IMG/VR virus record: IMGVR_UViG_3300027820_000029
Span: 14,039 to 78,038 of that record
Source: a virus
Taxonomy: Duplodnaviria; Caudoviricetes
Length of the DNA stretch: 64,000 nucleotides
Reading direction: 5' to 3' (one strand)
The position numbers and the translations under genes are program-made. Below the pieces are notes generated by a model. The model was given only the letters and a program-made list of their open reading frames with translations, did no database searches and was not told where the DNA came from. This document shows, piece after piece, positions 1 to 60,600 of this stretch. Position 1 is the stretch's first letter. Every line of letters begins with the position of its first letter.

Positions 1-101
1 GATAATACTCGCTGTAGTATAATATGCTCCGCTACTAGAGTAGATCCTAGTGCTGCAGCTAGTGATAAGATATGTATATTTGTAGCTATTAACTTCCACA
101 T
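1..101 (-). CDS. Partial hydrophobic hypothetical protein running off the window edge (MWKLIATNIHILSLAAALGS...)
   Basis: Read by hand: ATG at 101 after an AAGAG purine tract, open to the window start; not in the ORF track. Confidence 0.5.
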   Translation of the reverse strand, partial: MWKLIATNIHILSLAAALGSTLVAEHIILQRVL

Positions 102-271
102 TTATCTCTTTCCTTTAATATAATCAAATCAAATAACCAGCGTTGAAAAGTTGCTAAGTATTCATTTGGAATTTCTTCCCAGGTTTGTATTTCTTCTAAA
201 GATAGATTTAGCTCGTAAGCTACTTTTTCTTTAGTCCAACCACTTCCTATTAAAAAATCTTTAAGCCTCAA
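89..271 (-). CDS. Small hypothetical, possible HTH protein (WTKEKVAYELNLSLEEIQTWE)
   Basis: Track ORF 89..334; a TTG start at 271 with upstream AGGA removes most of the overlap with the phosphoesterase. Confidence 0.55.
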   Translation of the reverse strand: MRLKDFLIGSGWTKEKVAYELNLSLEEIQTWEEIPNEYLATFQRWLFDLIILKERDKCGS

Positions 272-1040
272 AACCAATTCCTTTTTTATCAAATTCAGGG
301 TTACGTTCATCATAGCCAAAGCCATAATAACCATGTGGATTAGCTAATACTCTAGTACCTTTTATAGTATAATCACTAGAGTTATGCATGTGACCGTGCA
401 CCCAGGTTAAAACCTTAGGTCCAAAGAAAGAAGACATGTCAGTATAATATGCCATAGTTAAAGCATCACATTTATAATATTCTAGGCTAGAAGTAATATG
501 AGGGGCAGTATGCGTCATCACTATAGCACGAGTTTCAGACTCTAGTGAATCTAAAGTTTTAGTTAAAAAATCTCTAAATTGGAAATGCATCTTAGTTGTA
601 ATTTGCGCGTTTATTCTAAAGTAGTTCTTTCCATCAAACCACTTAATTTTACGGTAATCATTTATATTAAATTGAGCAGCATTACCGGCTACTGGAGAGC
701 TAAGGTCTGTCCACATAGTTCCACCAATTAAAACTAAATCTGAGCCTAAAGGGACACAAGTGTTATTTAAGAAAATAACCCCTGTATCTTCTTCTACATT
801 GTTCATCATTTCTATAGACTTTTGAAATACTTGACCATAGCTTTCATGATTTCCAGCTATGATAAATACTTTCTCCCAGCCTTGAGTAGTACATTTAAGT
901 AAAAATTCTTTATAGGCAGAATATTGTGAGCATAGGCCAATATCTCCAGCTAAGAGGAGATAAGAGCTTTCTCCATCCCAGGCAGGGACAAAATCGTGCC
1001 CAAACTCTGCATGAATATCACTAAATAACTGAAACTTCAT
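261..1040 (-). CDS. Calcineurin-like metallophosphoesterase
   Basis: Motifs SDIH, AGDI, AGNHE, HTAP, HGHMH. Confidence 0.9.
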   Translation of the reverse strand: MKFQLFSDIHAEFGHDFVPAWDGESSYLLLAGDIGLCSQYSAYKEFLLKCTTQGWEKVFIIAGNHESYGQVFQKSIEMMNNVEEDTGVIFLNNTCVPLGSDLVLIGGTMWTDLSSPVAGNAAQFNINDYRKIKWFDGKNYFRINAQITTKMHFQFRDFLTKTLDSLESETRAIVMTHTAPHITSSLEYYKCDALTMAYYTDMSSFFGPKVLTWVHGHMHNSSDYTIKGTRVLANPHGYYGFGYDERNPEFDKKGIGFEA

Positions 1041-1308
1041 TTATTACCTCACATAACATATCAAAAGTAATATCAAAAATAGTATCTCCGTGTTCTAATC
1101 TTTCTTCATTAATAAACTTTCCTCGATGTATAAATTCATCACCACTTTCCCATAATTCAAAAAAGTTTAAAGTACCAGTACTACAAACATAAATTGGATT
1201 TTTAAAAAAGAAATCAATCTTAAATCCTGTAGAATGAGATTTAAATTTATGAGCTATTTTTCCAGAGCCTAATAGTTTTCTATTTCTAGTATATAAATAT
1301 ATCTTCAT
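1021..1308 (-). CDS. Hypothetical protein
   Basis: ORF tightly overlapping its neighbours in an operon. Confidence 0.6.
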   Translation of the reverse strand: MKIYLYTRNRKLLGSGKIAHKFKSHSTGFKIDFFFKNPIYVCSTGTLNFFELWESGDEFIHRGKFINEERLEHGDTIFDITFDMLCEVINEVSVI

Positions 1309-1529
1309 TTTCCTAATACTAGGTTATGCCAGCGTTCACATTGAATAGTAGTTTCTTGCAATTGTTGCGTTAGTCCGTTATTTTCTAGTTCAAGTTGCTT
1401 AACTAAGATTTCAATAGTTTCTAGTTCAGCTTGTACATGTTCATTTGTGCTAGCTTCAGCTAGCCGAGCAATTCGTTCGCTTATTTTCATTTGTGAGTTT
1501 TCCATTATCATCTTCCTTAAGAGTACCAA
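1305..1529 (-). CDS. Hypothetical coiled-coil protein
   Basis: ORF in operon; heptad-like composition. Confidence 0.6.
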   Translation of the reverse strand: MVLLRKMIMENSQMKISERIARLAEASTNEHVQAELETIEILVKQLELENNGLTQQLQETTIQCERWHNLVLGK

Positions 1530-1534
1530 ATATA

Positions 1535-1816
1535 TTATTCTAAGAATACTTCAGAGTAAAACTTAGCATCAATAGAGGCATCAGTAGAAGAAGAACGAAT
1601 AAAAATTAAGAGTTTTACTAGCTCCCATTCTGAGTAGTCAAAAGTAACTACCTTATTCTCATCAAAAGTAAGAATTATTTCATTACCAGTATCTTGGTAA
1701 TCTATAGCAGTTTTAGAGCAATAATCAGCAGTCCATTCTGAACCGTAATATTCAATTGCAGAAGGAGAGGTAAAACTATACTGTAGGGTATTGTCTAGAG
1801 AAATTAATTTTTGCAT
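1535..1816 (-). CDS. Hypothetical protein
   Basis: ORF directly downstream of the promoter at 1849-1876. Confidence 0.65.
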   Translation of the reverse strand: MQKLISLDNTLQYSFTSPSAIEYYGSEWTADYCSKTAIDYQDTGNEIILTFDENKVVTFDYSEWELVKLLIFIRSSSTDASIDAKFYSEVFLE

Positions 1817-1848
1817 ATTTTTGTAACCTTTTTGAGATTTAAAGTAAT

Positions 1849-1876
1849 ATTATACCAAATTTTAAGAGCGATGTCA
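1849..1876 (-). promoter_or_regulatory. sigma70-type promoter
   Basis: TTGACA-N16-TATAAT on the minus strand. Confidence 0.7.
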
Positions 1877-2000
1877 ACACATAAAAAATCGATGCTTATA
1901 CTAAAACCTAATAAAAACGGCTAGAGAAAAACTAAAGAAAAAGAGAGTTTTACAACTTTTTGCAACATTTATGAATATTTCTACATCTAAAAAATAGGTA

Positions 2001-2029
2001 TTGTAATTTGCTAAAAAATGTGCTATAAT
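2001..2029 (+). promoter_or_regulatory. sigma70-type promoter with no downstream ORF
   Basis: TTGTAA-N17-TATAAT with a TG extension. Confidence 0.55.
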
Positions 2030-2286
2030 ATAATAAATTAAGAGGGCTGAGAACAACAGAGACAATTTTTAAAAATTTTTCTCTGTAAAGAGATGAGTGG
2101 GTTGTTAAACCTCGCTATCAACCTATCATCACTGTTACGATAAAGAGAAAACTATAAATTTATAATAAATTGGCTAGGTGGTGGGAGAAGCCCCTTAATT
2201 TTGTCTAATAAAATTACAAATAAATTTGATTTTTTATGCTAAAATTAATATATAAATATTTTCTTATTTAAAAATATTAATTCAAT

Positions 2287-2330
2287 AAAATACCCCATTG
2301 AAAAAATTAAAACTTTCAATGGGGTTTTTT
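2287..2330. terminator. Bidirectional intrinsic terminator
   Basis: 12-bp stem ACCCCATTGAAA/TTTCAATGGGGT flanked by A and T runs. Confidence 0.8.
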
Positions 2331-2334
2331 CATT

Positions 2335-3198
2335 TTACCAAGGTTTATTTGTTTTATTACTAATAACTACATCTCTAGCTTTTGGTATTTTATCCCAATT
2401 ATATGGGTCTAAAATCATAGCACCACTAGTATCTCTTATACTAGCATTACCTAACCATAATTGAAGAAGCATCATTATTGCACCTTTTGGTACATGAATA
2501 ATTTCATATTTATCTTGATCCCATTCATCAACTTGATAATCAATAGAAGCGGCTTGATGCCCCCATGGAGCTTCACATTCTTCAGTTATTTTAGGGCTAG
2601 ATTCATCCCAAGCTTCATTAAGAACTTTAATACTAGCTAAATTACACTTATATGCTGTAGCAGGTTTTAATTCTCCTGAAGATTTAACAGTTAATGCTTG
2701 AATTCTAGCTTCTTTGAATTCTTCATCACTGTATTCTTTAAATGGGATAGGTTCAAGAATCCATTCTAGTCCTGAACCTAAAAAGTATTTTAGCATTTCA
2801 TCTTTTTTATCCCATGCTTCATACTTTATATTATTATTTAATTTATGCGCATACATAAATATAGGAGTCCAGGTACCAAATCTAGGATTTTTGGTTAATG
2901 ATTTACTTATTAGTTTACTTCTAGGAACATTATATATTGCTTTTAGCATAGATAATACTATTTCCTTAGGAATATCTCCATTAGGAGTATGTATTACATT
3001 AGGTATATTTTTAAATGTTTTAGTTGCATTAATTTTATTTTCATTACCATATAATTTAACTGAACTAAATATTGGTAATAAATGGTCCAATGATATTGTT
3101 TGTAATGCATTGGCAAATTTCCAATTTGTTAAACCATTATCTCTAGCAGTTTCAGCTTTATCTGCTATTTCTTTCCAGGGTATATCTTTAATATTCAT
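2335..3198 (-). CDS. Conserved hypothetical protein of T5-like phages
   Basis: 287 aa; segments KNPRFGTWTP, TVKSSGELKP and MLLQLWL resemble a T5-family hypothetical from memory. Confidence 0.7.
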   Translation of the reverse strand: MNIKDIPWKEIADKAETARDNGLTNWKFANALQTISLDHLLPIFSSVKLYGNENKINATKTFKNIPNVIHTPNGDIPKEIVLSMLKAIYNVPRSKLISKSLTKNPRFGTWTPIFMYAHKLNNNIKYEAWDKKDEMLKYFLGSGLEWILEPIPFKEYSDEEFKEARIQALTVKSSGELKPATAYKCNLASIKVLNEAWDESSPKITEECEAPWGHQAASIDYQVDEWDQDKYEIIHVPKGAIMMLLQLWLGNASIRDTSGAMILDPYNWDKIPKARDVVISNKTNKPW

Positions 3199-3560
3199 TC
3201 TTTTCCTTTTAATTTATTAATTTCATTTTGTAGGTTTTTAACTACATTAATTAATGTTAAAATTTCTAATTTATTTGCTTTTTGAACTGTTTCTAATTCT
3301 CCTTCCGGTAATTTACTCTCCTTTTCTAATGTCTGTACTAGCTGTACTTTAGTTTGTGGTTTATCTTTCGTTACTTTAGAAACTCTAAGATTAGGTATAT
3401 AAATCTTCATCTTAACAAGTTTCATTGTGATACTATTTTTAGGTTTATCTAAATGTTCGCACATTACTTTAATAGCATCAGCACGTTCTTCAGGTGTTTG
3501 ACATGCACTATAAATAGAATGCATGTATTTTTCGTCTTCTTCAGTATATTTTGGTTGCAT
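3195..3560 (-). CDS. A2-like small putative DNA-binding protein, paralogue 1
   Basis: KYTEE...SITMKLVKMKIY...RVSKVTKDKPQTK...KANKLEI pattern shared with 3724 and 6191. Confidence 0.65.
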   Translation of the reverse strand: MQPKYTEEDEKYMHSIYSACQTPEERADAIKVMCEHLDKPKNSITMKLVKMKIYIPNLRVSKVTKDKPQTKVQLVQTLEKESKLPEGELETVQKANKLEILTLINVVKNLQNEINKLKGKE

Positions 3561-3637
3561 TAAAAATTTACTCCTCGCATGATTTTACTTCGTAAAATCA
3601 AGCTTATATTTTTCATATTTTTTTAATTTGAAAATAT

Positions 3638-3666
3638 ATTATACAGAATTTAAGTTCATTTGTCAA
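3638..3666 (-). promoter_or_regulatory. sigma70-type promoter
   Basis: TTGACA-N17-TATAAT. Confidence 0.85.
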
Positions 3667-3685
3667 GAAGTATTTTTTATTTGTT

Positions 3686-3714
3686 AAAAAAAGACCCCCC
3701 CTAGGGAGGGGGCG
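3686..3714 (-). terminator. Intrinsic terminator
   Basis: C/G-rich hairpin followed by a U run on the minus strand. Confidence 0.7.
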
Positions 3715-3723
3715 TTTCTTAGT

Positions 3724-4080
3724 TTATTCTTTAACTCCCATTTCAGCATTTACACTTTGGGACATTCTGACAATAGCTTCCCAATGTGCAGTCAAGTCTC
3801 GCAGAGAGGCATTTTTATAAGAAGGTAGTTCAACACCATATACATTTTCCATGGCGGTAATAACATCTTCTTTGTTAACCTTGTTAACAGTAGCAGAAGG
3901 TTTAGCTTTAGGTACATAAACCTTTTCTGCTACAAGTTTACCACGTACTTGAGGTACTGTAACTTCAAACTCCTTGGCTAGTGCTTTAACTACTGCACTG
4001 CGTGTAGCATAGTCAGCTTCCTTAGAAGCATTATAGGTATCTAGCATGTGGCTAGTTTGCTGTGTTGTAAAATTACTCAT
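3724..4080 (-). CDS. A2-like small putative DNA-binding protein, paralogue 2
   Basis: NFTTQQ...VRGKLVAEKVY...NKEDVI...YKNASLRDL pattern; strong RBS and its own promoter. Confidence 0.7.
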   Translation of the reverse strand: MSNFTTQQTSHMLDTYNASKEADYATRSAVVKALAKEFEVTVPQVRGKLVAEKVYVPKAKPSATVNKVNKEDVITAMENVYGVELPSYKNASLRDLTAHWEAIVRMSQSVNAEMGVKE

Positions 4081-4144
4081 TTTTTCTTTCTCCTGGTTAA
4101 TTAATTTAATTTAAAAATTGAACTTTTTCTCATTCAATAAATAT

Positions 4145-4173
4145 ATTATACTTTGTTTTAGCAGAGGAGTCAA
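4145..4173 (-). promoter_or_regulatory. sigma70-type promoter
   Basis: TTGACT-N17-TATAAT. Confidence 0.85.
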
Positions 4174-4227
4174 GAGTTATATTTTGATTGCTTAAGGTAT
4201 CATTATTTATGTTTCATCATTATTGTT

Positions 4228-4363
4228 AGCTTCATCACTGTTTGCTTCATCACTGTGTTAGCTGTATCACTTGTACCACGCTGTATCACGCTTTATCGTT
4301 GTATCACGCTGTATCACGCTTCATCGTTGTATCATGCTGTATCACGCTTCATCGCTGTATCAC
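4228..4363. repeat. Non-coding tandem array of GCTGTATCAC / GCTTCATC units
   Basis: About a dozen 8-10 bp units read directly; dispersed copies near 4698-4708 and 4828-4845. Confidence 0.9.
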
Positions 4364-4883
4364 TTTCAAACTTTTATTCTCCCGCAGCACCGCTTGCGGG
4401 CCCGCTCCCACGTTTTATTTTGCAGCCGGCGCCCGTACAGTGATGGTCGGTGCACAGCATTTGGTTTCTATAAATTTGTGGGAATTTCTTAGTAATAAGG
4501 TAAGTTTCTTAAGATTGCTTAATTTTTGTTATTTTTTTTCGATATTTCTTAAAATTTCTTTGTTTTAATCAATTTCACGTTATAAATTTCGTTTTCTCAA
4601 GGTATCCTAACATATATCCTTAATGCAATTCAGAAAAATCTAGATAACGCTTCAGAATTTAACTTACATTATTCTGGACTCCTTTAATACTAACAGTCAC
4701 TGTATCACTGGAGTCGGGAAGTTATTTCTAGCCGAGCTGGAAAAAATTTTTTAGAAATTTTTGAAATTAGCGCGCGCAAAATCGTGCAGATGTTATTTTG
4801 GTACTCTTAAAAATTCGGGGAAATTACTTCATCGCTGTATCACTGTCTCCCTGGGTTGGGCTTAGGGAAAAATAAAAAAGTAC

Positions 4884-4913
4884 TTGACAAACCCTAGCCC
4901 GCTGTGATAAAAT
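4884..4913 (+). promoter_or_regulatory. Orphan sigma70-type promoter
   Basis: TTGACA-N18-TAAAAT with an upstream A-tract and GGCGCC after the -10. Confidence 0.65.
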
Positions 4914-4975
4914 GGCGCCCACGGAAGATACGAAAAAATATCGTTTTTGTACTCGCGCGGGCGCAGCAAAATTAT

Positions 4976-5557
4976 TTATAAATCAAGCATCTCTTCTTCT
5001 TCAGGGAATTCTAATTCTAACATTTGGTTATAATTTCCTAAGTATGAACCATCTGCCATATAAAACGCAGAAACAGTATCATCAACAAAACATGGTTGAT
5101 TTTCTTTATTAAATACTTCATATCCAAAGCGAGACATGTTATTCATGTTTATAGCTTCTTCTAGCTTTTTATCATATTCAGATTTTTCAATTATTTCAAC
5201 TTCATTAATTTTATCATCTTTATCAATTATTTCAACTTCATTAATTTTATCATCTTTATCAATTATTTCAACTTCATTAATTTTATCAATTATTTCAACT
5301 TTTTCAATTTTTTCAATTTTTTCAATTTTTTCAATTTTTTCAATTTTATCAAATTCTTTTAAAAATTTATCAATTTTTTCATCTACATTTAAAGGAATTC
5401 TATTTTTTCGATTTATTCCAAATTTCCCCGAATACCTCTGTGTTATTGCAGAAACTGACCTATGTGGTAAAAATTTTTCCTGTATTTCTTGGTCTGTCAT
5501 ATTTGTACTTTTATGAATTTTTTTAAGTAATTCATCTTCTTTATTTTGCCAATGCAT
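4976..5557 (-). CDS. Protein with Myb/SANT-like N-terminus and low-complexity repeats
   Basis: WQNKEDELL...HRSVSAITQR; (KIE)n and (DKINEVEIIDKD)n repeats; promoter at 5627-5655. Confidence 0.7.
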   Translation of the reverse strand: MHWQNKEDELLKKIHKSTNMTDQEIQEKFLPHRSVSAITQRYSGKFGINRKNRIPLNVDEKIDKFLKEFDKIEKIEKIEKIEKIEKVEIIDKINEVEIIDKDDKINEVEIIDKDDKINEVEIIEKSEYDKKLEEAINMNNMSRFGYEVFNKENQPCFVDDTVSAFYMADGSYLGNYNQMLELEFPEEEEMLDL

Positions 5558-5626
5558 TTTAACTCCTTTATATATCTAAATTATTTTAACTATTTTAAAT
5601 AAATGAATTATTTCATTTATTTTAAT

Positions 5627-5655
5627 ATTATACCAAATTTTAAAATATTTGTCAA
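5627..5655 (-). promoter_or_regulatory. sigma70-type promoter
   Basis: TTGACA-N17-TATAAT. Confidence 0.85.
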
Positions 5656-5879
5656 GCAACTTTTTTTATGGATTAATTTAGTACTTAGATTTAGTACATT
5701 ACTTTAGTACTTAGATTTAGTACTTTATTAATATGTAAAAATCGAATCGGTACTCTACTCAGCCAGCCAAAGGCGCAAGCGCCTATTAGAATATGTTTAT
5801 ATTCTAATATAATAATATTAGCAAATTCTAATATAAGTTCAGCTTATACCCCCATAAAAAAATTTTGTGCAAAAAAGAC

Positions 5880-6004
5880 TTGACCGCCGGTGATTGGCCA
5901 TGTTATACTGGTAGTAGCGTGCTCGCGCGAGCGGCGCCTATAAGAATTTTTTATGCCATTATAAAAAACTTTTGCTTGACAAGGCATCCAGCCTAGTGTA
6001 CCAT
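5880..6004 (+). promoter_or_regulatory. Two tandem orphan sigma70-type promoters
   Basis: TTGACC-N18-TATACT (5880-5909) and TTGACA-N17-TACCAT (5976-6004). Confidence 0.6.
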
Positions 6005-6114
6005 GGTATTGTGGGAGACTCGGGTCCTAGGGACGGCGCAATACCGTCAATAAATTGACGGTATTCTGGGGCAGCAGTATATTAGAATATTCTAATATAC
6101 TGCTATTCGAATGC

Positions 6115-6183
6115 AAAAAAAGGCCCCGCCAATTTTTTGGCGGAGCCTGGTTAAAAAGTGGCGGGGAAATTCTCCCCGCCGGA
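6115..6183 (-). terminator. Tandem terminator hairpins after the A2-like gene
   Basis: GGCGGGGA/TCCCCGCC and GGC.CCGCCAA/TTGGCGG.GCC stems with U runs on the minus strand. Confidence 0.7.
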
Positions 6184-6190
6184 TTAGCGA

Positions 6191-6607
6191 TTAACTGCTA
6201 AGATAGTTTGATACATCGTTATAGCGAGCCGCCATTGTATTGACGCTTTCGACATACACGATCAAAGCCGTTAAATCGGTCTTGTTGAGCTTCTCAGCGG
6301 AAACAAGGTTTAAACCTACCATCTCAACAAATTGCGCGGCCAAAACATCCTTTTTTGCTGGAGCAGCGCCGGTAACACTTGAAACCTTTTCTTTCGGCCG
6401 ATAGAGCTTCTCAAGCTCTCCAGTTGCGTTTTCAAAGGTCATAGGAGCAAGTTTAGCGATAACACCCTTCCAGGATTTTCCGAGATCCGCCGCAATCTGG
6501 CGAACAACAGAATCGCGCATTTCCTGATCTTCATCCCGTACCGCAGTATAGCGGTCACGAATTTCCGAAATCATAGTTTCGGTATAGTTCGGGGTTTTTG
6601 TAGCCAT
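6191..6607 (-). CDS. T5 A2-like pre-early DNA-binding protein
   Basis: NYTE...GVIAKL...LYRPKEKVSSVTGAAPAKK...EKLNKTDL resembles T5 A2 from memory; lies near the dmp-like gene. Confidence 0.65.
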   Translation of the reverse strand: MATKTPNYTETMISEIRDRYTAVRDEDQEMRDSVVRQIAADLGKSWKGVIAKLAPMTFENATGELEKLYRPKEKVSSVTGAAPAKKDVLAAQFVEMVGLNLVSAEKLNKTDLTALIVYVESVNTMAARYNDVSNYLSS

Positions 6608-6661
6608 AGTGCATTTTCTCCGGTAAATTCAGGTCGGGACCATTCCCGACCTGATGTAAAC

Positions 6662-6690
6662 ATTATATAGAAGTGTTAACCTGGTGTCAA
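6662..6690 (-). promoter_or_regulatory. sigma70-type promoter with a 5' hairpin
   Basis: TTGACA-N17-TATAAT, then an 11-bp stem TCAGGTCGGGA/TCCCGACCTGA. Confidence 0.85.
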
Positions 6691-6704
6691 CACTTTATTT
6701 CACT

Positions 6705-7430
6705 TTATTTTGCAATAAAGTGATTTTTCACTTGCATTTGTCTCCAGTCTGGTTTTTTCAGATCCACTAAATTTTTCAAAGCCCGACGTTTTGTAATGGC
6801 TCTCAAAATCGGTAACTCATAGTCTATAATATCCTCCAGAGCTGTATGTGGTTCGTTTGGCAAATCTGGGTTACCTAGCAAAAAACGTGCCATAATTTCA
6901 GCGTTAGCTTTATAAGACATATTGCCGAATTTTGTAGGATTATTAAAACCATGCACATCCAAAACAAATTCCCGATACTTTTTAGATTGCGCCCAAATAT
7001 CCGCAGCTGCGGCCCATAGACAAAATCGTTTTGAAAAACCCGTTAAATCAATTCCGGTTTTTTCACACTTGTCAACATCGAAAGGCAAGTTATACGCAGT
7101 CAAAAATGGGTCATAGTTTACTTTAACCCTATCTAACCAACGATTAATAGCCGATGCACTGGCTAACATACGCGAGCCACCTTCTAACATACGGGAATAA
7201 ACATCATACCGTTTTGACAAGCTGTCCCGATTCCAGATTGAGTCTACTGGAGCAGAGTTATCATAGAATAGTGGATGCGATTCCCGATTATTATAAACCC
7301 CGGCAACTAATACCGCACATTGTGCCGTTGTATTACCTTTACGATCAACCACCACAGCAGCAAAATCTGCTACTTTATCCGTCCGAGTTGTTTCTGTGTC
7401 AATAATACAAATAAACTGCTTTTTAGCCAT
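6705..7430 (-). CDS. DEDD/DnaQ-like 3'-5' exonuclease
   Basis: ExoI IIDTETT, ExoII AYNLPFD, ExoIII HTALED. Confidence 0.85.
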   Translation of the reverse strand: MAKKQFICIIDTETTRTDKVADFAAVVVDRKGNTTAQCAVLVAGVYNNRESHPLFYDNSAPVDSIWNRDSLSKRYDVYSRMLEGGSRMLASASAINRWLDRVKVNYDPFLTAYNLPFDVDKCEKTGIDLTGFSKRFCLWAAAADIWAQSKKYREFVLDVHGFNNPTKFGNMSYKANAEIMARFLLGNPDLPNEPHTALEDIIDYELPILRAITKRRALKNLVDLKKPDWRQMQVKNHFIAK

Positions 7431-7433
7431 AAT

Positions 7434-7916
7434 TTAATATCCTTGTTTTGACGGGGTGTATACCCCGACCGCAGAGAGATTATCGCACACCTTGCCTAGA
7501 TAGTCAAGGTTATCCTCAAAAAAAGTTATAGGTAAATCTCGAAACTGTTTAAGCTGTCGAAACATTGACAACCATTTAACCTTGAGTAACGCGCCGCTGG
7601 TATTTTGACCTTTTAGCCTACCGAAAATTTTATCTGGTATACCAAGGTGTTTAGCGATAAAATCCAGGTCTGGTTTTTTTAAAACCCGCGCAGTAGCGAT
7701 AACCACATAAATTTCAGGGTTGTCAATATCTTGACGGTATTTTTTTGCCAGTGGCAAAAGCGAATCCCTAGCGATTTTTTCTGGCGTGCTGTTTTTTCGC
7801 CAATACGCCAGGTCAATTTTCGTGCCACATGGCAAAGTTTTGTAACGATGTAGGCTACAAATTATCGTACCATCCAAATCATATACGTTAATTTTTTTAA
7901 GCATTCCAAACTCCAA
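7434..7916 (-). CDS. dmp: HAD-family deoxynucleoside-5'-monophosphatase, T5 Dmp-like
   Basis: YDLDGTIICSLHR, DSLLPL, IATARVL and FEDN match T5 Dmp motifs as recalled (WDLDGTIINSFHR, DTLLPL, ICTARLM). Confidence 0.8.
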   Translation of the reverse strand: MEFGMLKKINVYDLDGTIICSLHRYKTLPCGTKIDLAYWRKNSTPEKIARDSLLPLAKKYRQDIDNPEIYVVIATARVLKKPDLDFIAKHLGIPDKIFGRLKGQNTSGALLKVKWLSMFRQLKQFRDLPITFFEDNLDYLGKVCDNLSAVGVYTPSKQGY

Positions 7917-8109
7917 AACTGTTTGCTATCAGAAAGTAAGATTGTAACAGAAACAAGCTGTGTTGTCTAGTCTTTTTGAACAATATTAACAAAAAAAGAC
8001 AACTAATTATTCCTACAATAAATCCGCCAAAATAATGGCGACTAGAAAGTAGGCCAAAACCCACAGCGGCAAAAAACGTGCCAACATATTCAAAATATTT
8101 TTCATTCAT
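7897..8109 (-). CDS. Small multi-pass membrane protein
   Basis: Start moved to MNEKYF (GAGG 8 nt upstream); hydrophobic helices. Confidence 0.7.
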   Translation of the reverse strand: MNEKYFEYVGTFFAAVGFGLLSSRHYFGGFIVGIISCLFLLILFKKTRQHSLFLLQSYFLIANSFGVWNA

Positions 8110-8181
8110 AATCTGTGCCTCAATTCCAGAAACAGAATTATCGCATATCGCAATATCTTTGTATATACCCCATTTGGGGTA

Positions 8182-8313
8182 TTGACAACCCACAGGCGGC
8201 TGTGGTATAATGGCGCCTCCGTCAAAAATCTGGCACCATGCAAAATCTGTGCCAATTTATTTTGTCAATATCCACAAATAGGTATTGACACCAGGCAGCG
8301 GCTCCTGTATAAT
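8182..8313 (+). promoter_or_regulatory. Two tandem orphan sigma70-type promoters
   Basis: TTGACA-N18-TATAAT (8182-8211) and TTGACA-N17-TATAAT (8285-8313). Confidence 0.75.
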
Positions 8314-8378
8314 GAAAGTAGCGGATTCCCGCGGCGGCGCAAAAAAGCGTCAAGAAATTGACGCTTATGTTACAAAAT

Positions 8379-8404
8379 CTAGGGAGATAAATATATCTCC
8401 CTAG
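8379..8404 (-). terminator. Hairpin, probable terminator of the 8420-9224 operon
   Basis: 11-bp arms CTAGGGAGATA/TATCTCCCTAG followed by ATTTTG on the minus strand. Confidence 0.6.
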
Positions 8405-8419
8405 GAAAAGCAACAAATT

Positions 8420-8629
8420 TTATGCAAATTTAATGAAGCCCTTAAAATCTACCGCTAATTCGTATGGAGCATAATAAAATACTTCAGACACAAAATCATT
8501 TATATCTTCAAATTCGATCTCGAATGTTTCATCAATATCTTTATTTTCAGATTCAGAATTTTTCGATACCCAACATTTTCCATTTGAAATTGGGGTGTCA
8601 TGTTTAATATGTAAGTATAATTCTTTCAT
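8420..8629 (-). CDS. Acidic hypothetical protein
   Basis: ATGA overlap with the upstream gene. Confidence 0.65.
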   Translation of the reverse strand: MKELYLHIKHDTPISNGKCWVSKNSESENKDIDETFEIEFEDINDFVSEVFYYAPYELAVDFKGFIKFA

Positions 8630-8931
8630 TCATAAAACTCCTGATATGCTAGTCTACACCAGCGTTTAAAAATTTTTCCGTGGTTCCAGGCTTTACCATT
8701 TTCAGCTTGCCATACATGAATCATTTCATGCACCAGGGTATTGAATTTTTCCTGTTTTGATAGTGTTTCGGATATTCCTATAACCAATCCGCCGAGTTGC
8801 GTAGTTGTAAAACCATCTATTAAATAAGTGACATCAAATTGTTTTTTGCTACCATCAAATTTTATGATGTCAACACTAGGCAACTCGCTACCAAAAAGAC
8901 GGTCATTCACTTTGTTGTATAGCGAGCGCAT
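8626..8931 (-). CDS. SprT-like zinc metalloprotease domain protein
   Basis: TLVHEMIHVWQ...HGKIF motif; RBS GGAGG. Confidence 0.8.
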   Translation of the reverse strand: MRSLYNKVNDRLFGSELPSVDIIKFDGSKKQFDVTYLIDGFTTTQLGGLVIGISETLSKQEKFNTLVHEMIHVWQAENGKAWNHGKIFKRWCRLAYQEFYE

Positions 8932-8942
8932 AGTTCCTCCTT

Positions 8943-9224
8943 TTAGATAAAACCGTTTAGTGGGCCATAAACGAAGGTGGTGGGAATTGCCCGCGTTATT
9001 TCATTTTGCCAGTAAGTGAAGTAGTTCACCTTGCCGGATTTGTTTATCCACCGAAACTGAATTTCATCAGCTCCAAGGTCATGCTTGAGGGATTCCAAAT
9101 TTCGCTTACTGCAATAACAACCGCGCAGAATGTAAAAATCAATGCCAGAATTCCAATCAGAAAGAACATCTCTTTTCGTTTCATATTTTGCTCCATAAGC
9201 GGGTACCAAAGTGATTAAAGACAT
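8943..9224 (-). CDS. Hypothetical phage protein (MSLITLVPAYGAKY...)
   Basis: Start moved to 9224 on the basis of an AGGAGA RBS and the promoter at 9252-9280. Confidence 0.75.
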   Translation of the reverse strand: MSLITLVPAYGAKYETKRDVLSDWNSGIDFYILRGCYCSKRNLESLKHDLGADEIQFRWINKSGKVNYFTYWQNEITRAIPTTFVYGPLNGFI

Positions 9225-9240
9225 TGTGCAATCTCCTGTA

Positions 9241-9280
9241 ACTGAGAGGCTAGTATATACTAGCCTCTCAGTGATGTCAA
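9241..9280 (-). promoter_or_regulatory. sigma70 promoter embedded in a perfect 32-bp palindrome
   Basis: TTGACA-N17-TATACT; palindrome ACTGAGAGGCTAGTATATACTAGCCTCTCAGT at 9241-9272. Confidence 0.85.
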
Positions 9281-9492
9281 CTAATATTTTCCATTGCATC
9301 TTCAACGAAATATTTAGCTTCCCGTAGTCCACAATCGAATTCCCAACGAATAAGTTTAATTGCCTTAATTTTATCAAGTTTTCCGAGTTTAGCAGCAAAA
9401 CTGTAAAATAATTCAACATATTCTGGTGAACGATCTGTATCGAAACTTACATCATTCGGCAGATTTACCGTAGTTTTCAAATTTATATACAT
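9277..9492 (-). CDS. Protein with ribosomal L7/L12 C-terminal-like domain
   Basis: KIKAIKLIRWEFDCGLREAKYFVE matches the KI.vIK.vR...gL.eAK.lVe pattern. Confidence 0.7.
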   Translation of the reverse strand: MYINLKTTVNLPNDVSFDTDRSPEYVELFYSFAAKLGKLDKIKAIKLIRWEFDCGLREAKYFVEDAMENIS

Positions 9493-9509
9493 AACAATCT
9501 CCTGTAAGT

Positions 9510-9546
9510 GAGAGGCTAGTATATACTAGCCTCTCCTAGATGTCAA
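9510..9546 (-). promoter_or_regulatory. Second copy of the palindrome-embedded promoter
   Basis: 26-bp palindrome GAGAGGCTAGTATATACTAGCCTCTC; TTGACA-N17-TATACT. Confidence 0.85.
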
Positions 9547-9756
9547 TTAAAAGTTTTCAGGATTTACCCGGCGGAGCCAGGTAGCAACGGTTTCAGGATA
9601 GATCGCTGTTGCCAGCGATTCAAGTGCTGTAGCATCTTTAAACTCGCTGCGCTTGAAAGTAAAGTAGCTTTTTAGCGCCTTATTTCGACGAGTGTTATTT
9701 TCCGCCAGGTTGCGATCTTTACGGGTGGATTTTTTGGTACAGGTCTTTTTGCTCAT
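9547..9756 (-). CDS. Small basic hypothetical protein
   Basis: RBS GGAGAG; promoter TTGACA-N17-TATACT at 9809-9837. Confidence 0.7.
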   Translation of the reverse strand: MSKKTCTKKSTRKDRNLAENNTRRNKALKSYFTFKRSEFKDATALESLATAIYPETVATWLRRVNPENF

Positions 9757-9833
9757 AATTTACTCTCCGCCGAATTTGTGTGCCAGATAAAATATCGCCA
9801 CTGAGATAAGTATAGTCAAAATTTCATTCATTG

Positions 9834-9920
9834 TCAAGGCCCTTTGTAAAGTATTTTAAAAACAAGCCAACCTACCGGCAAACTTGCGAGTGCAATAAAT
9901 AAACCAGCTAAAATTTCCAT
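9834..9920 (-). CDS. 28-aa single-pass membrane microprotein MEILAGLFIALASLPVGWLVFKILYKGP
   Basis: Read by hand; RBS GGAGA; own promoter TTGACA-N17-TATAAT at 9947-9975. Confidence 0.65.
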   Translation of the reverse strand: MEILAGLFIALASLPVGWLVFKILYKGP

Positions 9921-9973
9921 TCTTTAGTTCTCCAAATCAAAGATATATTATAACAAAATTCGGATCGCTTGTC

Positions 9974-10030
9974 AACATCGGTTTTTAACATCGCTTTTTA
10001 ACATCGGTTTATAACATCGGTTTATAACAT
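9974..10030. repeat. 13-bp tandem repeat AACATCGSTTTWT, four copies plus a partial
   Basis: Units start at 9974, 9987, 10000, 10013. Confidence 0.9.
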
Positions 10031-10357
10031 GTCAATTTTTTGACACACCGTCAATTTTTTGACACACCGTCAATATTTTGACACATGCAAGAATCATGCC
10101 AGCGTCAAAATATTGACACATGCAAAAATCGTGCCAACCTGGCACCGCCAATTTGTTGACGCCCGCGCTCCCCTCTAGGCCACCTCCCCATATGCTGAAT
10201 TGAGGCCCATTGTAGCACGGATTACAGCCAGGCACAACCCCTTTTGGAAAATAAATATTGGCACATTTCTTGCTAATGCAATTATCGTGCCAGGTCCGCC
10301 GGCGCTTTTCATAAAATGTTTTTATGGTGGTATAAAAAAATTTAGTGCATAAAGTTG

Positions 10358-10386
10358 TTGCTATGTATACGCGGTTCCTGTATCAT
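10358..10386 (+). promoter_or_regulatory. Orphan sigma70-type promoter
   Basis: TTGCTA-N17-TATCAT followed by GAAAGTAGCG, as after the 8285 promoter. Confidence 0.6.
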
Positions 10387-10510
10387 GAAAGTAGCGTGCC
10401 CTGCTCGGGCGCCGTCAACAAGTTGACGGTATAAGGAGCGTCAATTTCTTGACGCATTTTGGTGCAAGGGCGCCAAAAACCCCTTGAAAATCAAGGGGTT
10501 ATGAAGCAGT

Positions 10511-10708
10511 CTACCAAGCTGAATATCCGGGTTCCGTGATGTAAATTTCGCGGCACAAGTCATCAGTGTAGCCATGATCTGGCATGATTATTGCATCAGA
10601 TGGAAGATCCATCTGCTCACGCACATAGTCGCAAGCTGCCGCCCAAGTGTCAAATTCTTGACGGTAGGTTCCATCTTCTGCGTTCAGAACTGTAAGGTAT
10701 TTCGACAT
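10511..10708 (-). CDS. Small acidic hypothetical protein
   Basis: Start moved to MSKYL (GAGG upstream). Confidence 0.65.
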   Translation of the reverse strand: MSKYLTVLNAEDGTYRQEFDTWAAACDYVREQMDLPSDAIIMPDHGYTDDLCREIYITEPGYSAW

Positions 10709-10768
10709 AGTTTTGTTGCCTCTTTGAAAGTTGCCACCGCCAGGAATTTGACGGTGGCTTAGTGTCAA

Positions 10769-11032
10769 CTAAATGGCGGTCCAGCTTGAGCGGTCGATCA
10801 TAGACGGCATGTCGCGCGCTGGCACAAAATTAACATGACCGTCAAGAATACGGCAGAACCAGCCGTCCAAAAAACCTTTCTTTACCATGCTAATAACATG
10901 GGTTTTACGCGCCTGTTCAGAGCCCATGAAAAACTTAAAACTTTTGACTGGTAAGGTAGTCAAAATTTTGACGGTAGCCTTTCGTCCAGCAACGGTCTGT
11001 TGGTGGGTACATGTCGATTTGTATGTGTTCAT
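10769..11032 (-). CDS. Hypothetical protein
   Basis: RBS GGAG; in operon. Confidence 0.65.
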   Translation of the reverse strand: MNTYKSTCTHQQTVAGRKATVKILTTLPVKSFKFFMGSEQARKTHVISMVKKGFLDGWFCRILDGHVNFVPARDMPSMIDRSSWTAI

Positions 11033-11035
11033 ATA

Positions 11036-11155
11036 TTAGACTCCAAAAATTGAGCTGAGGATAACGGCAATGGGAGCGCCTAGAAAAGCACTCAAGAAAA
11101 TCACAAGAAACTTCCAATCACACTTGGCATGAAATTTGCTGTAGTCATAAACCAT
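11036..11155 (-). CDS. 39-aa membrane microprotein MVYDYSKFHAKCDWKFLVIFLSAFLGAPIAVILSSIFGV
   Basis: Read by hand; RBS GAGGT; promoter TTGACA-N17-TAACAT at 11207-11235. Confidence 0.6.
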   Translation of the reverse strand: MVYDYSKFHAKCDWKFLVIFLSAFLGAPIAVILSSIFGV

Positions 11156-11334
11156 GGTAATACCTCTGGTAGGGCGGGTGGTGGTGGTTTTTTGTAACAT
11201 GCGAGCATGTTAATCCTATTTTCTATTCTTGTCAAGCTTTAAACGCATTGAAATAAAAATAAATTCTAGTTTCTTTTTATGTGCCCATAAAAAACTTTTG
11301 GGGCATATTTTGTGTCAATATCTCTAATGGGGTA

Positions 11335-11364
11335 TTGACAAGTAAGGGATAGCTGTGGTAAAAT
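11335..11364 (+). promoter_or_regulatory. Orphan sigma70-type promoter
   Basis: TTGACA-N18-TAAAAT then TGGCGCC; same layout as the 4884 and 8182 promoters. Confidence 0.65.
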
Positions 11365-11386
11365 TGGCGCCGCCAAATTTTTGACG

Positions 11387-11500
11387 CATAAGCTACGCTT
11401 ATGCGCGCATAGAAACATCCTATTTGACGTCAAAAATCTGGCACATAAGCTCAGCTTATGCGCGCATAGAAACATCCTATTTGACGTCAAATTCCTGGCG
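11387..11500. repeat. 57-bp tandem duplication built from small palindromes
   Basis: Units at 11387 and 11444 each contain CATAAGC..GCTTATG, ATGCGCGCAT and TTGACGTCAA. Confidence 0.9.
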
Positions 11501-11680
11501 GCGCTGTTCGCGCCTGGCGTTATGACGCCAGGGCCTCCGGCAGGGTGGAAGCCAGGCCAGCGGGCCTGGCATGCTTTTTGACTTGCAAAAGCTATGCCAA
11601 TATTTATTTTCTGAAAAGGGTTGTAATGCTCAGCCAGGCTGTTATACTGCACTCTCACCCACACAGAAAAGGACCGAAAA

Positions 11681-11899
11681 ATGAGCATATCCGTCAAAAT
11701 CGTAGAACACGCCGCGCACCATTGCTTCCAGGATGCTATCCGCATCAACACCTTTCGTGAGTGGGAAGAATGCCATCACCGGCTGTCGGGGATGGTAACC
11801 TTGGCAATCTGGGCAGACGCCAGCCGTAGCGCAAAAACCACACTACAATTATTGCGAGACATCGCAATGGAACGCAAATGGATGACTTTTGACGCTTAG
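11681..11899 (+). CDS. Hypothetical protein, the only credible plus-strand ORF in this segment
   Basis: RBS AAGGA; TTGTAA-N16-TATACT at 11621-11648. Confidence 0.55.
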   Translation: MSISVKIVEHAAHHCFQDAIRINTFREWEECHHRLSGMVTLAIWADASRSAKTTLQLLRDIAMERKWMTFDA

Positions 11900-12143
11900 C
11901 GTCAAAAGTTTGACCACCCGTCAAATCTTTGACGGGTGGGGGCGGTTATCGGACTTGGTCCGAGGCTCCTCGGACCTCACTACCCCACGCGTAAACGATA
12001 CAAGGTTTTTGAGAAACTACTACAAGGTGTATAAGATTTTTGAGAAACCAAGGTATATTTTTTGCATTGATTTTAGAGAGCTAAAATAAAATATTAACTT
12101 TAATATGCTAATCTACACCTAGCCTAAAAAGTATCAAGTGGGA

Positions 12144-12172
12144 TTGACATGGACAAAAAAATTTGATATAAT
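12144..12172 (+). promoter_or_regulatory. Promoter of the late/packaging operon
   Basis: TTGACA-N17-TATAAT with a TG extension, upstream of terS. Confidence 0.8.
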
Positions 12173-12205
12173 GCAATTTAATAATAGAAAAAATAAGGAG
12201 TACAC

Positions 12206-12661
12206 ATGTCTAATGCAATGATGAATCCAGAAGAAACTTATAGGATGCCACCAGAATTGCTAGAAGTTACTACTAGATATTTAGAAACAGCTAGTATAGA
12301 AGAAACAGCAAGTACATTAGATATACCTGTAGAAAAGGTAGTATACTATTTAAATAAAAAAGAGTCAAAAAGATTTATAGATACAATCTTCTTAGAACAA
12401 GGATATATAAATAGAACAAAGCTACAATCCACTCTAGATACAATTATAGATAAAAAACTGCTAGAGTTAGAAGAAGCAGAGTTAACTAGTAATAAAGACA
12501 TTGCAGACTTATTAACTCTAGCATTAAAAATGCGAGAAAGCTTTGTAAAAGATTTAGTAGCAGAACCAAAAGAAACACAACAAACAAACGTACAAGTTAA
12601 TGGCCCAGCAAATTTTGGGCTTAATTATAATAATTTACTAACTAAACTTATTGAGGATTGA
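12206..12661 (+). CDS. terS: Terminase small subunit, T5-like
   Basis: IDTIFLEQGYINR...IIDKKLLELEE...SNKDIADLL...QTNVQ resembles T5 TerS; first late gene. Confidence 0.85.
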   Translation: MSNAMMNPEETYRMPPELLEVTTRYLETASIEETASTLDIPVEKVVYYLNKKESKRFIDTIFLEQGYINRTKLQSTLDTIIDKKLLELEEAELTSNKDIADLLTLALKMRESFVKDLVAEPKETQQTNVQVNGPANFGLNYNNLLTKLIED

Positions 12662-57668: not shown

Positions 57669-60600
57669 TTATCTAATTGGACAAGTTCCCGAAGAACATT
57701 CCATACTTTCTAGCTCCTCAAGAGATTCAGTCCCATCAAAGTTAATTTCTATTATTTCATTAATATACGTTTCATACTTTTCTTTGGTTACAACTTCCTG
57801 AGGCAAATAATTGAATCCCAGGTCTTGGGCTGACATAGTAGGGTCTGTTCTAAAAAGGAAAGATACTCCTATATAGTCATTCCAATTGGTTAACAACCAT
57901 TCTATTATTAAATCCTTTTCTTCAATATCATAACTAATAGTATTAGAAACATTTTGATCACACCAGTTCCGCATGTAAAATTTATAGCGTTCTAATTGTT
58001 CAATAGCAGATTCTTTATTTACTTCTAATATTTCTTTAATACCATTATTTCTTTCTACAGTTACTTTAGTAAATTCTATATTATCCCATTTTATAGGAAA
58101 GCATATTAATTTACTAGTAGTATCATTTGGATTATCTAATGTTCTATAATTTGCTTGCTTTAATTTACTAACTAAAGGATCATGCTTTGAGAAATTGATC
58201 CAGTTAAAAATATATTTTCCAAGTGGAACATGTATTCCTTCAGTTGTAGACATTAGTTTTGATACTGTATTATGAGATTTAATAGCTCCAGCATAGTACC
58301 ACGGCTCATTTTCTACTTCTATATCATAAGTTTCTACTTTATTTTCTATGTAATCTAAGGAAATTACTTTACCCTTATGTTTAGTAATAGATTTATAATT
58401 TTCAAAATGCCAATCATTTTTACATTTTAATATTTTATTACTATTTTCTTGTAATATATTAAAAGAATCTTTATTTATATTTATATTAGAAGTTAACAAC
58501 CACATATGTTTTTTATATTGAAAACTATTACCTTTTGTATTTAACGATCTTCCTATGCCTAATCCAACTGCCCAGCATACTTCTTGAATATGTTTAGCAA
58601 ATCTATCTTGTGATGTTGATATCATAAATCTAGCTAAATTATTTTGTATACTTATACATCCATCACTATCTATTAATCCGGCCAGAAAAGAAATAATTAA
58701 TTCACTAGACTGCCTGACTTTTTTTGGTATATAATTTAAATCATTATTAATATCATATTTATAAAAATTATTTTCTATAATCCAATTATATAAATTTTTA
58801 CATCCTATTTCTAATACACTAGCATTTCTATCTCCTGAGGCTTTATGTATTTTTGATATTATATTAAATTCTGCATATAATATTTTTTTAACTTTTTCTA
58901 AATTATATATATGTTCATCTATAAATCTTATTTTGTATTTTTCTGGAGATAAAGAGCCGTCCCCCCATAGGTAACCTAGTAGCCAAGATATATTTTTGTT
59001 AAGAAATTTTGGTTGTTTTATTTGTGTTTGACTATTATTAATATTGGTTTGTTGAATTAAATTTAGTTTAACAGGATTTATACTATCAAAAGCTTTATTA
59101 TGTATTTCTATAAAATCCTTACCTATTTGTAAATCTTTAGTTTTTACCCACTGTGGTTTAAATTTTTTAGATGGAAGACTACTTCCTGGTCTATTTCTTC
59201 TATGTATCCACCATTTATGTTCCGGTGTACATTGTATTTCCATTCCTAAGCTTAACTTAATTTTTATAGTATTACTTAATCCATTTTTAAATTTATGTAT
59301 AGTTTTATTTGTTTTATTATTTTGTGGTATAGTTAAACATAATGGTTCCCATGTTTTATCATTTTCATTAAATAATTCATCTAAAATAAATAGACCCTCT
59401 TTAGTAGTTAATAATTCTGAACCAATTCTACAGCCACTAGGTTTAAGTGTAGTAACATTTTTAGGAAAAGGTGTATCTAATTCCTTAGCCATACTTCTTG
59501 CAGCAGCTACTGCACAATAGCGCATATTCTTTAAATCATACTCATTTAAATCACTTCTTTCAGCAATGCCTGTTAAAGATACTCCACATAATCTAGTAAA
59601 AGATTGATTTAAGTTCCAAGTTTCCTGTAGGATTCCATCTTTTAAATCTACACATGTTTGTCTGTAATTCGATCTTGATAATAATTCAATAGTTTTATAT
59701 AACCCTGGCATATCATTTTTATATTTTGAAACAGGAATTTCAACCAAATTGCAAAAAGAGTGGGATGAAAGTAGAATTTCCATACAGGGATTTCCTCCAC
59801 TAGCAAAAGGAGCCCTTCTCTTCATATTCTCTGCATTAAGAAATCCCGGTTCACTACCTCCAGATTCTATCATTATGTCAAATATATCTGATAATTCTTC
59901 TTTAGTAGGTTTATTCCAAAACATTAATGAATTATTAGACTGTTGCCTATGTAAATATTCTTTTTCGAAGCATTTTTCTTTAAATTTAGAAAACTCTCTC
60001 CATTGACTACTTCCATAATCTACAAATGTTATTATAGCAGATCTTCTAGAACTTAATACACTACCCAGTAAATCAATTATATCAATAATATCTAATTTTG
60101 TTAATATACTTCCAGCCCTGTTATTTAATATATTAAATATTTTAGGGAATGCTATAGCTAATTGAGCATCCCCACTAGAAATCCAACCATATCCTTTTAA
60201 TCTATACCCAGCTCCTCGTATTTCACTAAGATCAATAACTAGTTTATTTACTTTATATTTTCCAGCTAATAACTTACCTATAGATTTAGACCAGCTTTGT
60301 GCGGAATCGCCAATACGTATAACCCAAGTGCCCTCACTAACATATTCTTCATTAATTTCAATACCTTTATCATCTGGTGCTCTAGTTGAACGAATAATTT
60401 CTAATTCTTTTATAGTAGTTCTAAACCCTGTTAGAGTACCTTCAATTGGTTTTATTCCTACGCCACAACCATTTAATAATAACCAAAATAAATCAACTAT
60501 ATCATATATCGTTCTAGCTTCTGCAAAACTACAATTAAATAAACTAGATTCATGTTTCTTTCCAACATCTGTTCCTCCCAGCCATAACTGCCTCCCCGAA

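Follow-up and report, generated by a model that had tools for sequence, protein, structure and literature searches.

A candidate sigma54-type promoter of the dmp operon in a T5-like phage contig, and head-on sigma54-type sites in phage early regions

The window analysed here (64,000 nucleotides) comprises bases 14039-78038 of the 78-kb IMG/VR virus record IMGVR_UViG_3300027820_000029. Its left part carries a minus-strand operon with a homologue of the phage T5 gene dmp, and in front of this operon lies a sigma54-type -24/-12 element at 8254-8239. We consider it somewhat more probable than the opposite that this element is a genuine site of sigma54 polymerase and acts as a regulated promoter for the insulated dmp operon, with a start near 8228; this assessment is based on sequence data. 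It would be one of a family of sigma54-type promoters located in the first-expressed DNA of this phage, of the Vibrio T5-like phages, and of many uncultured phages. A wider proposal is made tentatively, and we hold it to be possible rather than probable. Several lytic phage lineages, cultured Vibrio T5-like phages among them, may start their first genes from head-on sigma54 promoters, with infection gated by the enhancer-binding ATPase that is active in the host, here a FleQ-type flagellar and cyclic di-GMP (c-di-GMP) regulator; the phage would thereby have a sensor of host state assembled from host parts. The facing cassettes would combine sigma54 with sigma54 or sigma54 with sigma70.

The minus-strand element consists of TGGCAC (8254-8249) and TTGCA (8243-8239) separated by five nucleotides, an exact match to TGGCAC-N5-TTGCW. 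The slightly longer sequence TTGGCACAGATTTTGCA (8255-8239) has GG at -24 and GC at -12 with the fixed spacing, in the context YTGGCACG-N4-TTGCW, and the stretch 8254-8237 is near-identical to the Salmonella glnA site validated by chromatin immunoprecipitation (PMC3844500). The C of the -12 element is at 8240, and the predicted +1 lies 119 nt upstream of the ATG at 8109. An earlier note on this DNA had proposed a correctly oriented sigma54 site in front of the operon. All its coordinates proved correct, the site points at the operon, and the motif is clearly over-represented: with up to one mismatch, TGGCAC-N5-TTGC gave 12 matches vs. 2.2 expected, and none of 100 shuffles reached 12. All ten TGGCAY-N5-TTGC sites of the 78-kb contig fall between window positions 6878 and 11599 (4.7 kb). 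For Salmonella, approximately 70 sigma54 sites are known on the whole chromosome (PMC3844500).

Read along the minus strand, the stop codon of the upstream gene (8420) is followed by a hairpin (8404-8379), the palindrome of 8366-8345 and its U tract, GC-rich sequence, a perfect sigma70 promoter in reverse complement (8313-8285), the sigma54-type sequence TTGGCACagattTTGCA (8255-8239), the degenerate box of 8234-8221, GGCGCC, a second perfect sigma70 promoter, again in reverse complement (8211-8182), a weak TATACA-17-GATAAT match (8165-8137), GAGG 8 nt upstream of the start codon, and the ATG. The sigma54-type site sits after two terminators. It is also bracketed by the two plus-strand sigma70 promoters, both with 12 of 12 consensus positions; the -35 element of the one at 8285-8313 is 31 bp behind the -24 element. 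The statement of the earlier note that the operon has no minus-strand sigma70 consensus was essentially right, as the sole candidate (8165-8137) matches 9 of 12 positions, and nine members of this class were found in the region vs. ten expected from shuffles. Sigma70 promoters with 12 of 12 positions precede five minus-strand early operons (1849, 3638, 5627, 6662, and 9947). RNA structure in the 119-nt operon leader was not significant (z = -1.9).

We propose that host sigma54 polymerase would bind at 8254-8239, that a host activator ATPase would open the promoter, and that the operon would be transcribed from about 8228. A phage-encoded sigma54 was searched for in the contig, which is estimated to be 63% complete, and none was found; since the contig encodes neither sigma54 nor an activator, opening would need an enhancer-binding ATPase of the host. 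The best candidate site for such an activator here is the palindrome SCGTCAA-N4-TTGACGS, a match to the FleQ box. The operon would be shielded from upstream transcription by the two terminators and has no consensus sigma70 promoter. The opposing sigma70 promoter (8182-8211, start at about 8218) would overlap the sigma54 complex, the two predicted starts being about 10 nt apart. Because of this overlap, which is deduced from known holoenzyme footprint sizes, the two polymerases should exclude each other, and the outcome may be a switch that selects either sense transcription with sigma54 or antisense transcription with sigma70. What the sequences show directly is the quality of the motifs, their clustering and conservation, the bias in orientation, and the association of boxes with sigma54 sites; sigma54 binding, FleQ-type activation, the start site, and the switch are inferred. 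More conjecturally, and as the earlier note had suggested, FleQ or FlrA might be the binder, the operon might be linked to c-di-GMP, and the sites might drain flagellar transcription.

Co-oriented sigma54 sites were also found upstream of the dmp unit in four loci of uncultured relatives with dmp homologues of 34-48% identity (L106, L077, L056, and L090). The distance from site to unit varies from 110 to 850 bp, and the DNA does not otherwise align. The L106 site precedes the dmp ATG by 110 bp, with a head-on pair of sites 120 bp further up, and in this locus no sense sigma70 match of at least 9 of 12 positions was detected before dmp. The block GGCGC(G)CCA..TTTTACCACA..CTTGTCAATAC, which comes right after the site, is an opposite-strand TTGACA-18-TAAAAT promoter, and its start nearly coincides with the sigma54 start. 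Since L106 keeps both the sigma54 site and a head-on consensus sigma70 promoter, the composite is conserved and is no accident of the window. In L077, a head-on pair directly follows a terminator and precedes dmp. The order in L090 is a small hydrophobic open reading frame (ORF), dmp, and a homologue of the 241-aa third protein of the operon (55% identity), with a sigma54 site upstream; a GCGTCAA-N4-TTGACG palindrome lies about 100 bp upstream of this site and another just downstream of it.

The nearest relatives of the contig's terminase and portal were those of T5-like (Demerecviridae) Vibrio phages, with 49% and 40% identity, respectively. Whole-genome scans of these cultured phages for TGGCAY-N5-TTGC placed all six sites of X1, all five of PG07, and six of the seven of VCPH in the pre-early region of about 3 kb. 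T5 had no such site, Providencia phage PSTCR5 had one elsewhere, and My1 had one per terminal repeat. The reversed-pattern control gave no match in X1, PG07, VCPH, or T5. When the control regions of the Vibrio phages and of this contig were aligned, a head-on pair of sigma54-type sites was the single conserved island: the two sites are head to head, only 3-4 nt separate their -12 elements, and the surrounding DNA is unrelated. The pair of the Vibrio phages lies between divergent pre-early operons (A2-A1-dmp and the opposite one), and each site aims at its own operon. In the stretches compared, up to the terminase genes, the only proteins common to the contig and the Vibrio phages were dmp and a terS-like protein. 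In the non-coding pre-early regions of X1 (L006; 11560-12040 and 15020-15090), DnaA boxes (TTATCCACA) adjoin a sigma54 site, and several Fur-box-like repeats of the GATAATCATTCTCAT type are present. A Salmonella T5-like phage requires rpoN, glnDLG, and himAD, for which the authors invoke RpoS and glutamine effects (PMC8744999).

The pair pattern TTGGCAY-N5-TTGC-N3/4-GCAA-N5-RTGCCAA has 22 specified positions and is expected about once per 2e12 bases. It was present in more than 120 IMG/VR contigs among the matches listed, to which the counts of phage pairs, sites, and loci in this paragraph refer. In 596 Gb of prokaryote genomes, by comparison, it was present in only 14 stretches, most of them on very short contigs of metagenome-assembled genomes or of Leptospira. 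The pair-carrying loci were numbered L019-L138. The GC content of the 120 unique pair elements ranges from 0.31 to 0.60, and their spacers vary freely. G or A follows TGGCAY in 99%, A or T follows TTGC in 80%, and the positions before TTGC are T-rich; the free positions therefore follow sigma54 preferences. Divergent intergenic regions (median size 736 bp) harbour the pair in 46 of the 74 classifiable loci. Single intergenic sites in the pair loci are directed toward a gene start in 84 of 118 cases and toward a gene end in 34 (p = 5e-6). The terminases of the carriers fall into two or more clades. In L039, L065, L075, and L083, the pairs form tandem arrays of 2-4 copies that repeat every 43-63 bp.

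The second motif in front of the operon is the palindrome GTCAAGAAATTGAC at 8349-8362, which extends to AAGCGTCAA-N4-TTGACGCTT. As the earlier note stated, it is an exact GTCAA-N4-TTGAC box with its centre about 115 bp upstream of the -12 C. The FleQ core is GTCAAT and ATTGAC with two A/T bases between them (PMC10723142), and the FleQ consensus is given as GTCaNTAAAtTGAC or GTCAaAAAAtTGAC (PMC6120874). GTCAAGAAATTGAC agrees with the 14-bp core at 13 of 14 positions; the copies at 6046, 10031, and 10050 are exact P. aeruginosa or P. putida FleQ consensus sequences (PMC6120874, PMC10723142). The copies of the window extend to SCGTCAA-N4-TTGACGS. With up to one mismatch, GTCAA-N4-TTGAC had 16 matches vs. 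1.5 expected. All 13 exact boxes of the 78-kb contig are in window 6046-11933, and together the boxes and the sigma54-type sites are confined to one stretch of about 6 kb.

The boxes are associated with sigma54-type sites in other phages as well. In 1.02 Mb of loci from other phage contigs, the box was the most enriched foreign palindrome by sigma54 pairs, with 18 copies within 300 bp and 3 in the remainder, which is much larger than the 300-bp zones. Among the matches listed, boxes were within 300 bp of pairs in 12 other loci. They alternate with tandem sigma54 sites in the L028 group, flank one in the L090 group, and occur also in L012-L014. In the window, the sites at 10122 and 10087 each have a perfect box 4 nt downstream, with its centre at the start site, two further boxes with 19-bp spacing lie in the same stretch (10031-10136), and the degenerate box at 8221-8234 has the same placement. 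This composite of site, 4 nt, and box was also found in three unrelated phage contigs. Its interpretation as a host flagellar promoter type was rejected, as only four stretches were found in 596 Gb of prokaryote genomes, all of coding type and at chance level.

The palindrome at 8341-8366 is a candidate enhancer for the 8254-8239 site, and the chances that it acts as one are about even. Only a little short of even is the alternative that the sigma54 site is real while the palindrome at 8349-8362 is solely a terminator and an element of a plus-strand module; activation, if any, would then proceed via the degenerate start-site box, via distant boxes, or by an activator from solution. In the minus-strand RNA, the second of the tandem hairpins (8366-8341) has a 9-bp stem, a 4-nt loop, and a U tract, with a fold z-score of -6.7. 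The box hairpin is directly followed by U6 and is therefore a canonical intrinsic terminator, with exactly the form expected. The box is also at +30 to +45 of the opposite-strand sigma70 promoter module, and its position appears to be set relative to that promoter, because promoter, AGTAGCG, GC hairpin, and box follow one another in this order at 10358 too and, in part, at 5880. Terminator stem and module part together explain the box fully. No integration host factor (IHF) site (WATCAANNNNTTR with up to one mismatch) was found in 8225-8350; such DNA-bending sites are common between enhancer and promoter but are not required. Box-to-start distances vary between the sigma54 sites, and other sites of the region have a box centred on the start rather than upstream. 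Sigma54 sites without a box are found in L106, L077, L056, and the Vibrio phages. The "textbook" enhancer geometry claimed in the earlier note did not hold up in view of these data. Its argument from distance stood in part: 115 bp is within enhancer range, but at a density of about one box per 375 bp, a single box 80-170 bp upstream is not significant alone. Favoring an enhancer role, L090 has the same palindrome about 100 bp upstream of its sigma54 site where no gene ends, boxes accompany the pairs of 12 other loci, and a single element is able to fill both roles.

The main rival reading, which we regard as unlikely, is that sigma54 holoenzyme binds at 8254-8239 without firing. Its closed complex, stable in the absence of an activator, would be a roadblock or insulator behind the terminators, a repressor of the antisense promoter, or a sink for sigma54 (and for the box-binding protein) during entry and replication of the genome, while the operon would be expressed by read-through or from the weak sigma70 candidate at 8165-8137. 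Sigma54 holoenzyme is described as inactive when promoter-bound, and many chromosomal sigma54 sites as intragenic and without a known role as promoters (PMC4591121, PMC3844500). An activator gene was absent from all phages examined; namely, the sigma54 activator domain (PF00158) was detected neither in the contig nor in any of the three complete Vibrio phage genomes and 14 larger phage records. Members of the site family lie inside genes at 6878 and 8069, the tandem arrays in L039, L065, L075, and L083 look more like binding pads than promoters, and sites directly follow terminators both here and in L077. The candidate at 8165-8137 has an extended -10. Non-coding regions of T5-like phages collect host-factor sites such as DnaA boxes (10.1101/866236), and in X1, DnaA boxes and Fur-box-like repeats surround the sites. 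Moreover, an identical 15-mer in X1 spans a stop/start junction, the plus-strand sigma54-type match at 10580 is explained by coding sequence, and a promoter dependent on a host ATPase would be a risky choice for a first-expressed gene. The points given above for the box also weigh against a firing promoter. On the other hand, single intergenic sites favor gene starts (84 vs. 34) and the pairs favor divergent intergenic regions (46/74), and a pure sink or roadblock needs neither orientation nor placement. L106 is without a usable sense sigma70 promoter before dmp, and the score class of 8165-8137 is expected by chance.

It is very improbable that both motifs are read by phage-encoded proteins rather than by host sigma54 and a FleQ-type regulator, the likeness being coincidence or mimicry. 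The near absence of the composite and of the head-on pair from prokaryote genomes and their presence in phage contigs would fit such proteins, as would the 63% completeness of the contig. However, the carriers span several terminase clades and GC contents from 0.31 to 0.60 and share no protein beyond dmp, a terS-like protein, and terminase classes; a DNA-binding protein shared among the motif carriers was looked for in the stretches compared, and none was found. What is recognised is an asymmetric half-site of two parts, which is found on its own as well, and its free positions follow sigma54 preferences.

Compared with known sigma54 promoters, the -24/-12 letters and spacing here are like those of FleQ flagellar promoters (P. 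aeruginosa fleSR) and of the nitrogen-gene promoter glnAp2. The palindrome matches the FleQ core (PMC10723142), and its distance falls in the range of 70-150 bp that is usual for such sites (PMC3844500). The title of Jyot et al. 2002, cited in PMC10723142, records FleQ sites downstream of an RpoN site, which parallel the boxes at 10122 and 10087. Unlike enhancer-dependent sigma54 promoters, the arrangement is found in the genome of a lytic phage that has neither an activator gene nor an IHF site here. Unlike in FleQ flagellar sites, the palindrome has CG flanks that are conserved (SCGTCAA..TTGACGS) and is at the same time a terminator, and unlike in FleQ flagellar promoters or glnAp2, the site is head-on with a consensus sigma70 promoter. 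The FleQ-controlled sigma70 biofilm promoters pel, psl, and cdrA have two boxes near or over the promoter or start (PMC10723142, PMC3424551). The plus-strand sigma70 promoters, whose boxes are at approximately +30 to +45, resemble this; however, they are antisense to the early operons and have no credible gene ahead.

The T5 pre-early (first-step-transfer) region shares with this contig a dmp homologue, many small early genes, and a T5-type terminase and portal, as well as large non-coding stretches with repeats, inverted repeats, and host-factor sites (10.1101/866236). T5 differs in that it uses sigma70 polymerase for all three gene classes (PMC7472727) and has zero TGGCAY-N5-TTGC sites. In addition, A1 and A2 homologues were searched for in the contig (63% complete) and none was found, and dmp is in a different operon and orientation. 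Non-promoter sigma54 sites of Salmonella, E. coli, and Vibrio cholerae are high-scoring and intragenic or antisense, with interference proposed (PMC3844500, PMC4591121); unlike these chromosomal sites, those of the contig have an approximately thousand-fold higher density and include conserved head-on pairs.

The early promoters of phages are regarded as strong sigma70 or phage-polymerase types, since immediate firing is required of them whatever the state of the host. In the literature searched, no report of sigma54 promoters in T5-like or other lytic phages was found. The earlier note had seen here a candidate for an undescribed system, and its interpretation is supported in part. The enhancer-dependent sigma54 promoter is a known kind; its systematic and conserved head-on use in the first-expressed region of lytic phages appears to be undescribed. 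If the proposal is true, some lytic phages would sense host physiology through an activator ATPase before committing to infection; if the sites do not fire, phages would capture sigma54 polymerase for another purpose, and either way this would be new phage biology. The proposal is directly testable, as cultures exist of X1, PG07, and VCPH and standard rpoN and flrA mutants exist of their host species. The head-on pair also provides a simple search pattern for early control regions, with more than 120 uncultured phages among the matches listed. The coordinates of the features are given in Table 1.

Table 1. Features of the dmp operon and the surrounding control region (window coordinates)
Feature	Position	Strand	Remarks
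Third operon gene, 241-aa protein	6705..7430	-	Putative exonuclease, phrog_20187 (function unknown)
dmp homologue	7434..7907	-	HAD-type 5'-deoxyribonucleotidase, DxDGT motif
First operon gene	7897..8109	-	70-aa hydrophobic protein, PnuC-like match below threshold
Weak sigma70 candidate for the operon	8137..8165	-	TATACA-17-GATAAT with upstream TG, 9 of 12
Sigma70 promoter with TG, 12 of 12	8182..8211	+	Start at about 8218, head-on to predicted sigma54 start at about 8228
Degenerate box, minus strand GCCAGATTTTTGAC	8221..8234	.	Centred on predicted start site
Sigma54-type -24/-12 element TGGCACagattTTGCA	8239..8254	-	Predicted +1 near 8228
Second sigma70 promoter, 12 of 12	8285..8313	+	AGTAGCG module: promoter, GC hairpin, box
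Palindrome AAGCGTCAA-N4-TTGACGCTT	8341..8366	.	FleQ-like 14-bp core 8349-8362; hairpin and U6 (8346-8341)
First intrinsic terminator hairpin	8379..8404	-	3' of upstream gene
Upstream gene, 69 aa	8420..8629	-	Transcript ended by tandem terminators; stop at 8420
Tandem sigma54-type sites (two)	10031..10136	-	Perfect box 4 nt downstream of each, its centre at the start
Head-on pair of sigma54-type sites	10258..10293	.	Kept in Vibrio T5-like phages and viral contigs

The operon occupies 8109-6705 on the minus strand, and its three genes abut or overlap. The dmp assignment of the earlier note was borne out by 33% identity to T5 dmp (E 2e-12), and identity to dmp of the Vibrio phages is 31-37%. Its naming of the third gene as an exonuclease fared less well: the 241-aa protein is 55% identical to the product of the gene 3' of dmp in L090, but look-ups of solved structures and Pfam with the dmp-like and 241-aa proteins were empty, and "exonuclease" is therefore a motif-level guess from an N-terminal DTETT-like motif only. 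Identical 15-mers (TGGCACGTTTTTTGC) are located inside two unrelated genes, at 6878-6892 in the gene of the 241-aa protein and at 8069-8083 in that of the small membrane protein; both are sigma54-type sites in sense orientation.

The source record has no end repeats. Plus-strand genes from position 12206 on encode terS-like, terminase, portal, head, and tail proteins, and all genes to the left of 12206 are on the minus strand, arranged as short early-type operons. The 6-12 kb stretch is packed with repeats and has a G+C content of 0.40-0.46 vs. about 0.30. RNA family searches in window 5500-12500 gave only sub-threshold chance matches and no tRNAs. No close relatives of the locus were retrieved by IMG/VR scans seeded with the 241-aa protein, a 488-aa protein, and the terminase. 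A megablast search of phage records for close relatives and a tblastn search with the 241-aa protein yielded no matches. In L090, an open frame of more than 3645 aa (2-10936) adjoins the terS-like gene.

Several repeats and further promoter-like elements were observed in the control region. A 40-nt inverted repeat with copies at 10234-10273 and 11585-11624, 1.3 kb apart, includes a sigma54-type site and 25 nt of common upstream sequence (..GAAAATAAATAT-TGGCAY); AAAATAAAT precedes the 8254 site as it does in this repeat. Near-consensus plus-strand sigma70 promoters at 4884, 5880, 5976, 8182, 8285, 10358, and 11335 face the early operons, and this family leads into no ORF. Their modules are of two types, AGTAGCG with a GC hairpin and a box, and TATAAT-GGCGCC, the latter being kept in L106. 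At 9964-10028 are five 13-bp repeats in tandem (minus-strand sequence GATGTTAWAAANC), which adjoin, on the upstream side, the perfect sigma70 promoter 9975-9947 and overlap its -35. A 65-nt repeat is present in two copies (9229-9293 and 9495-9559; 88% identical), each with a 27-bp perfect palindrome, GAGAGGCTAGTATATACTAGCCTCTC, which forms the spacer and -10 of a TTGACA-17-TATACT promoter and, in this position, is like a built-in operator. Two tandem 57-bp repeats at 11371-11484 each contain an inner palindrome (CATAAGCT..AGCTTATG) and a degenerate box. Further to the right, a class II ribonucleotide reductase (57669-60881, 1070 aa) was examined as a clue to the host; it matched only marine phages and was uninformative in this respect. 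Its alignments to phage homologues are split into two or three segments, with just 65% of its length covered, which suggests a large insertion, possibly an intein.

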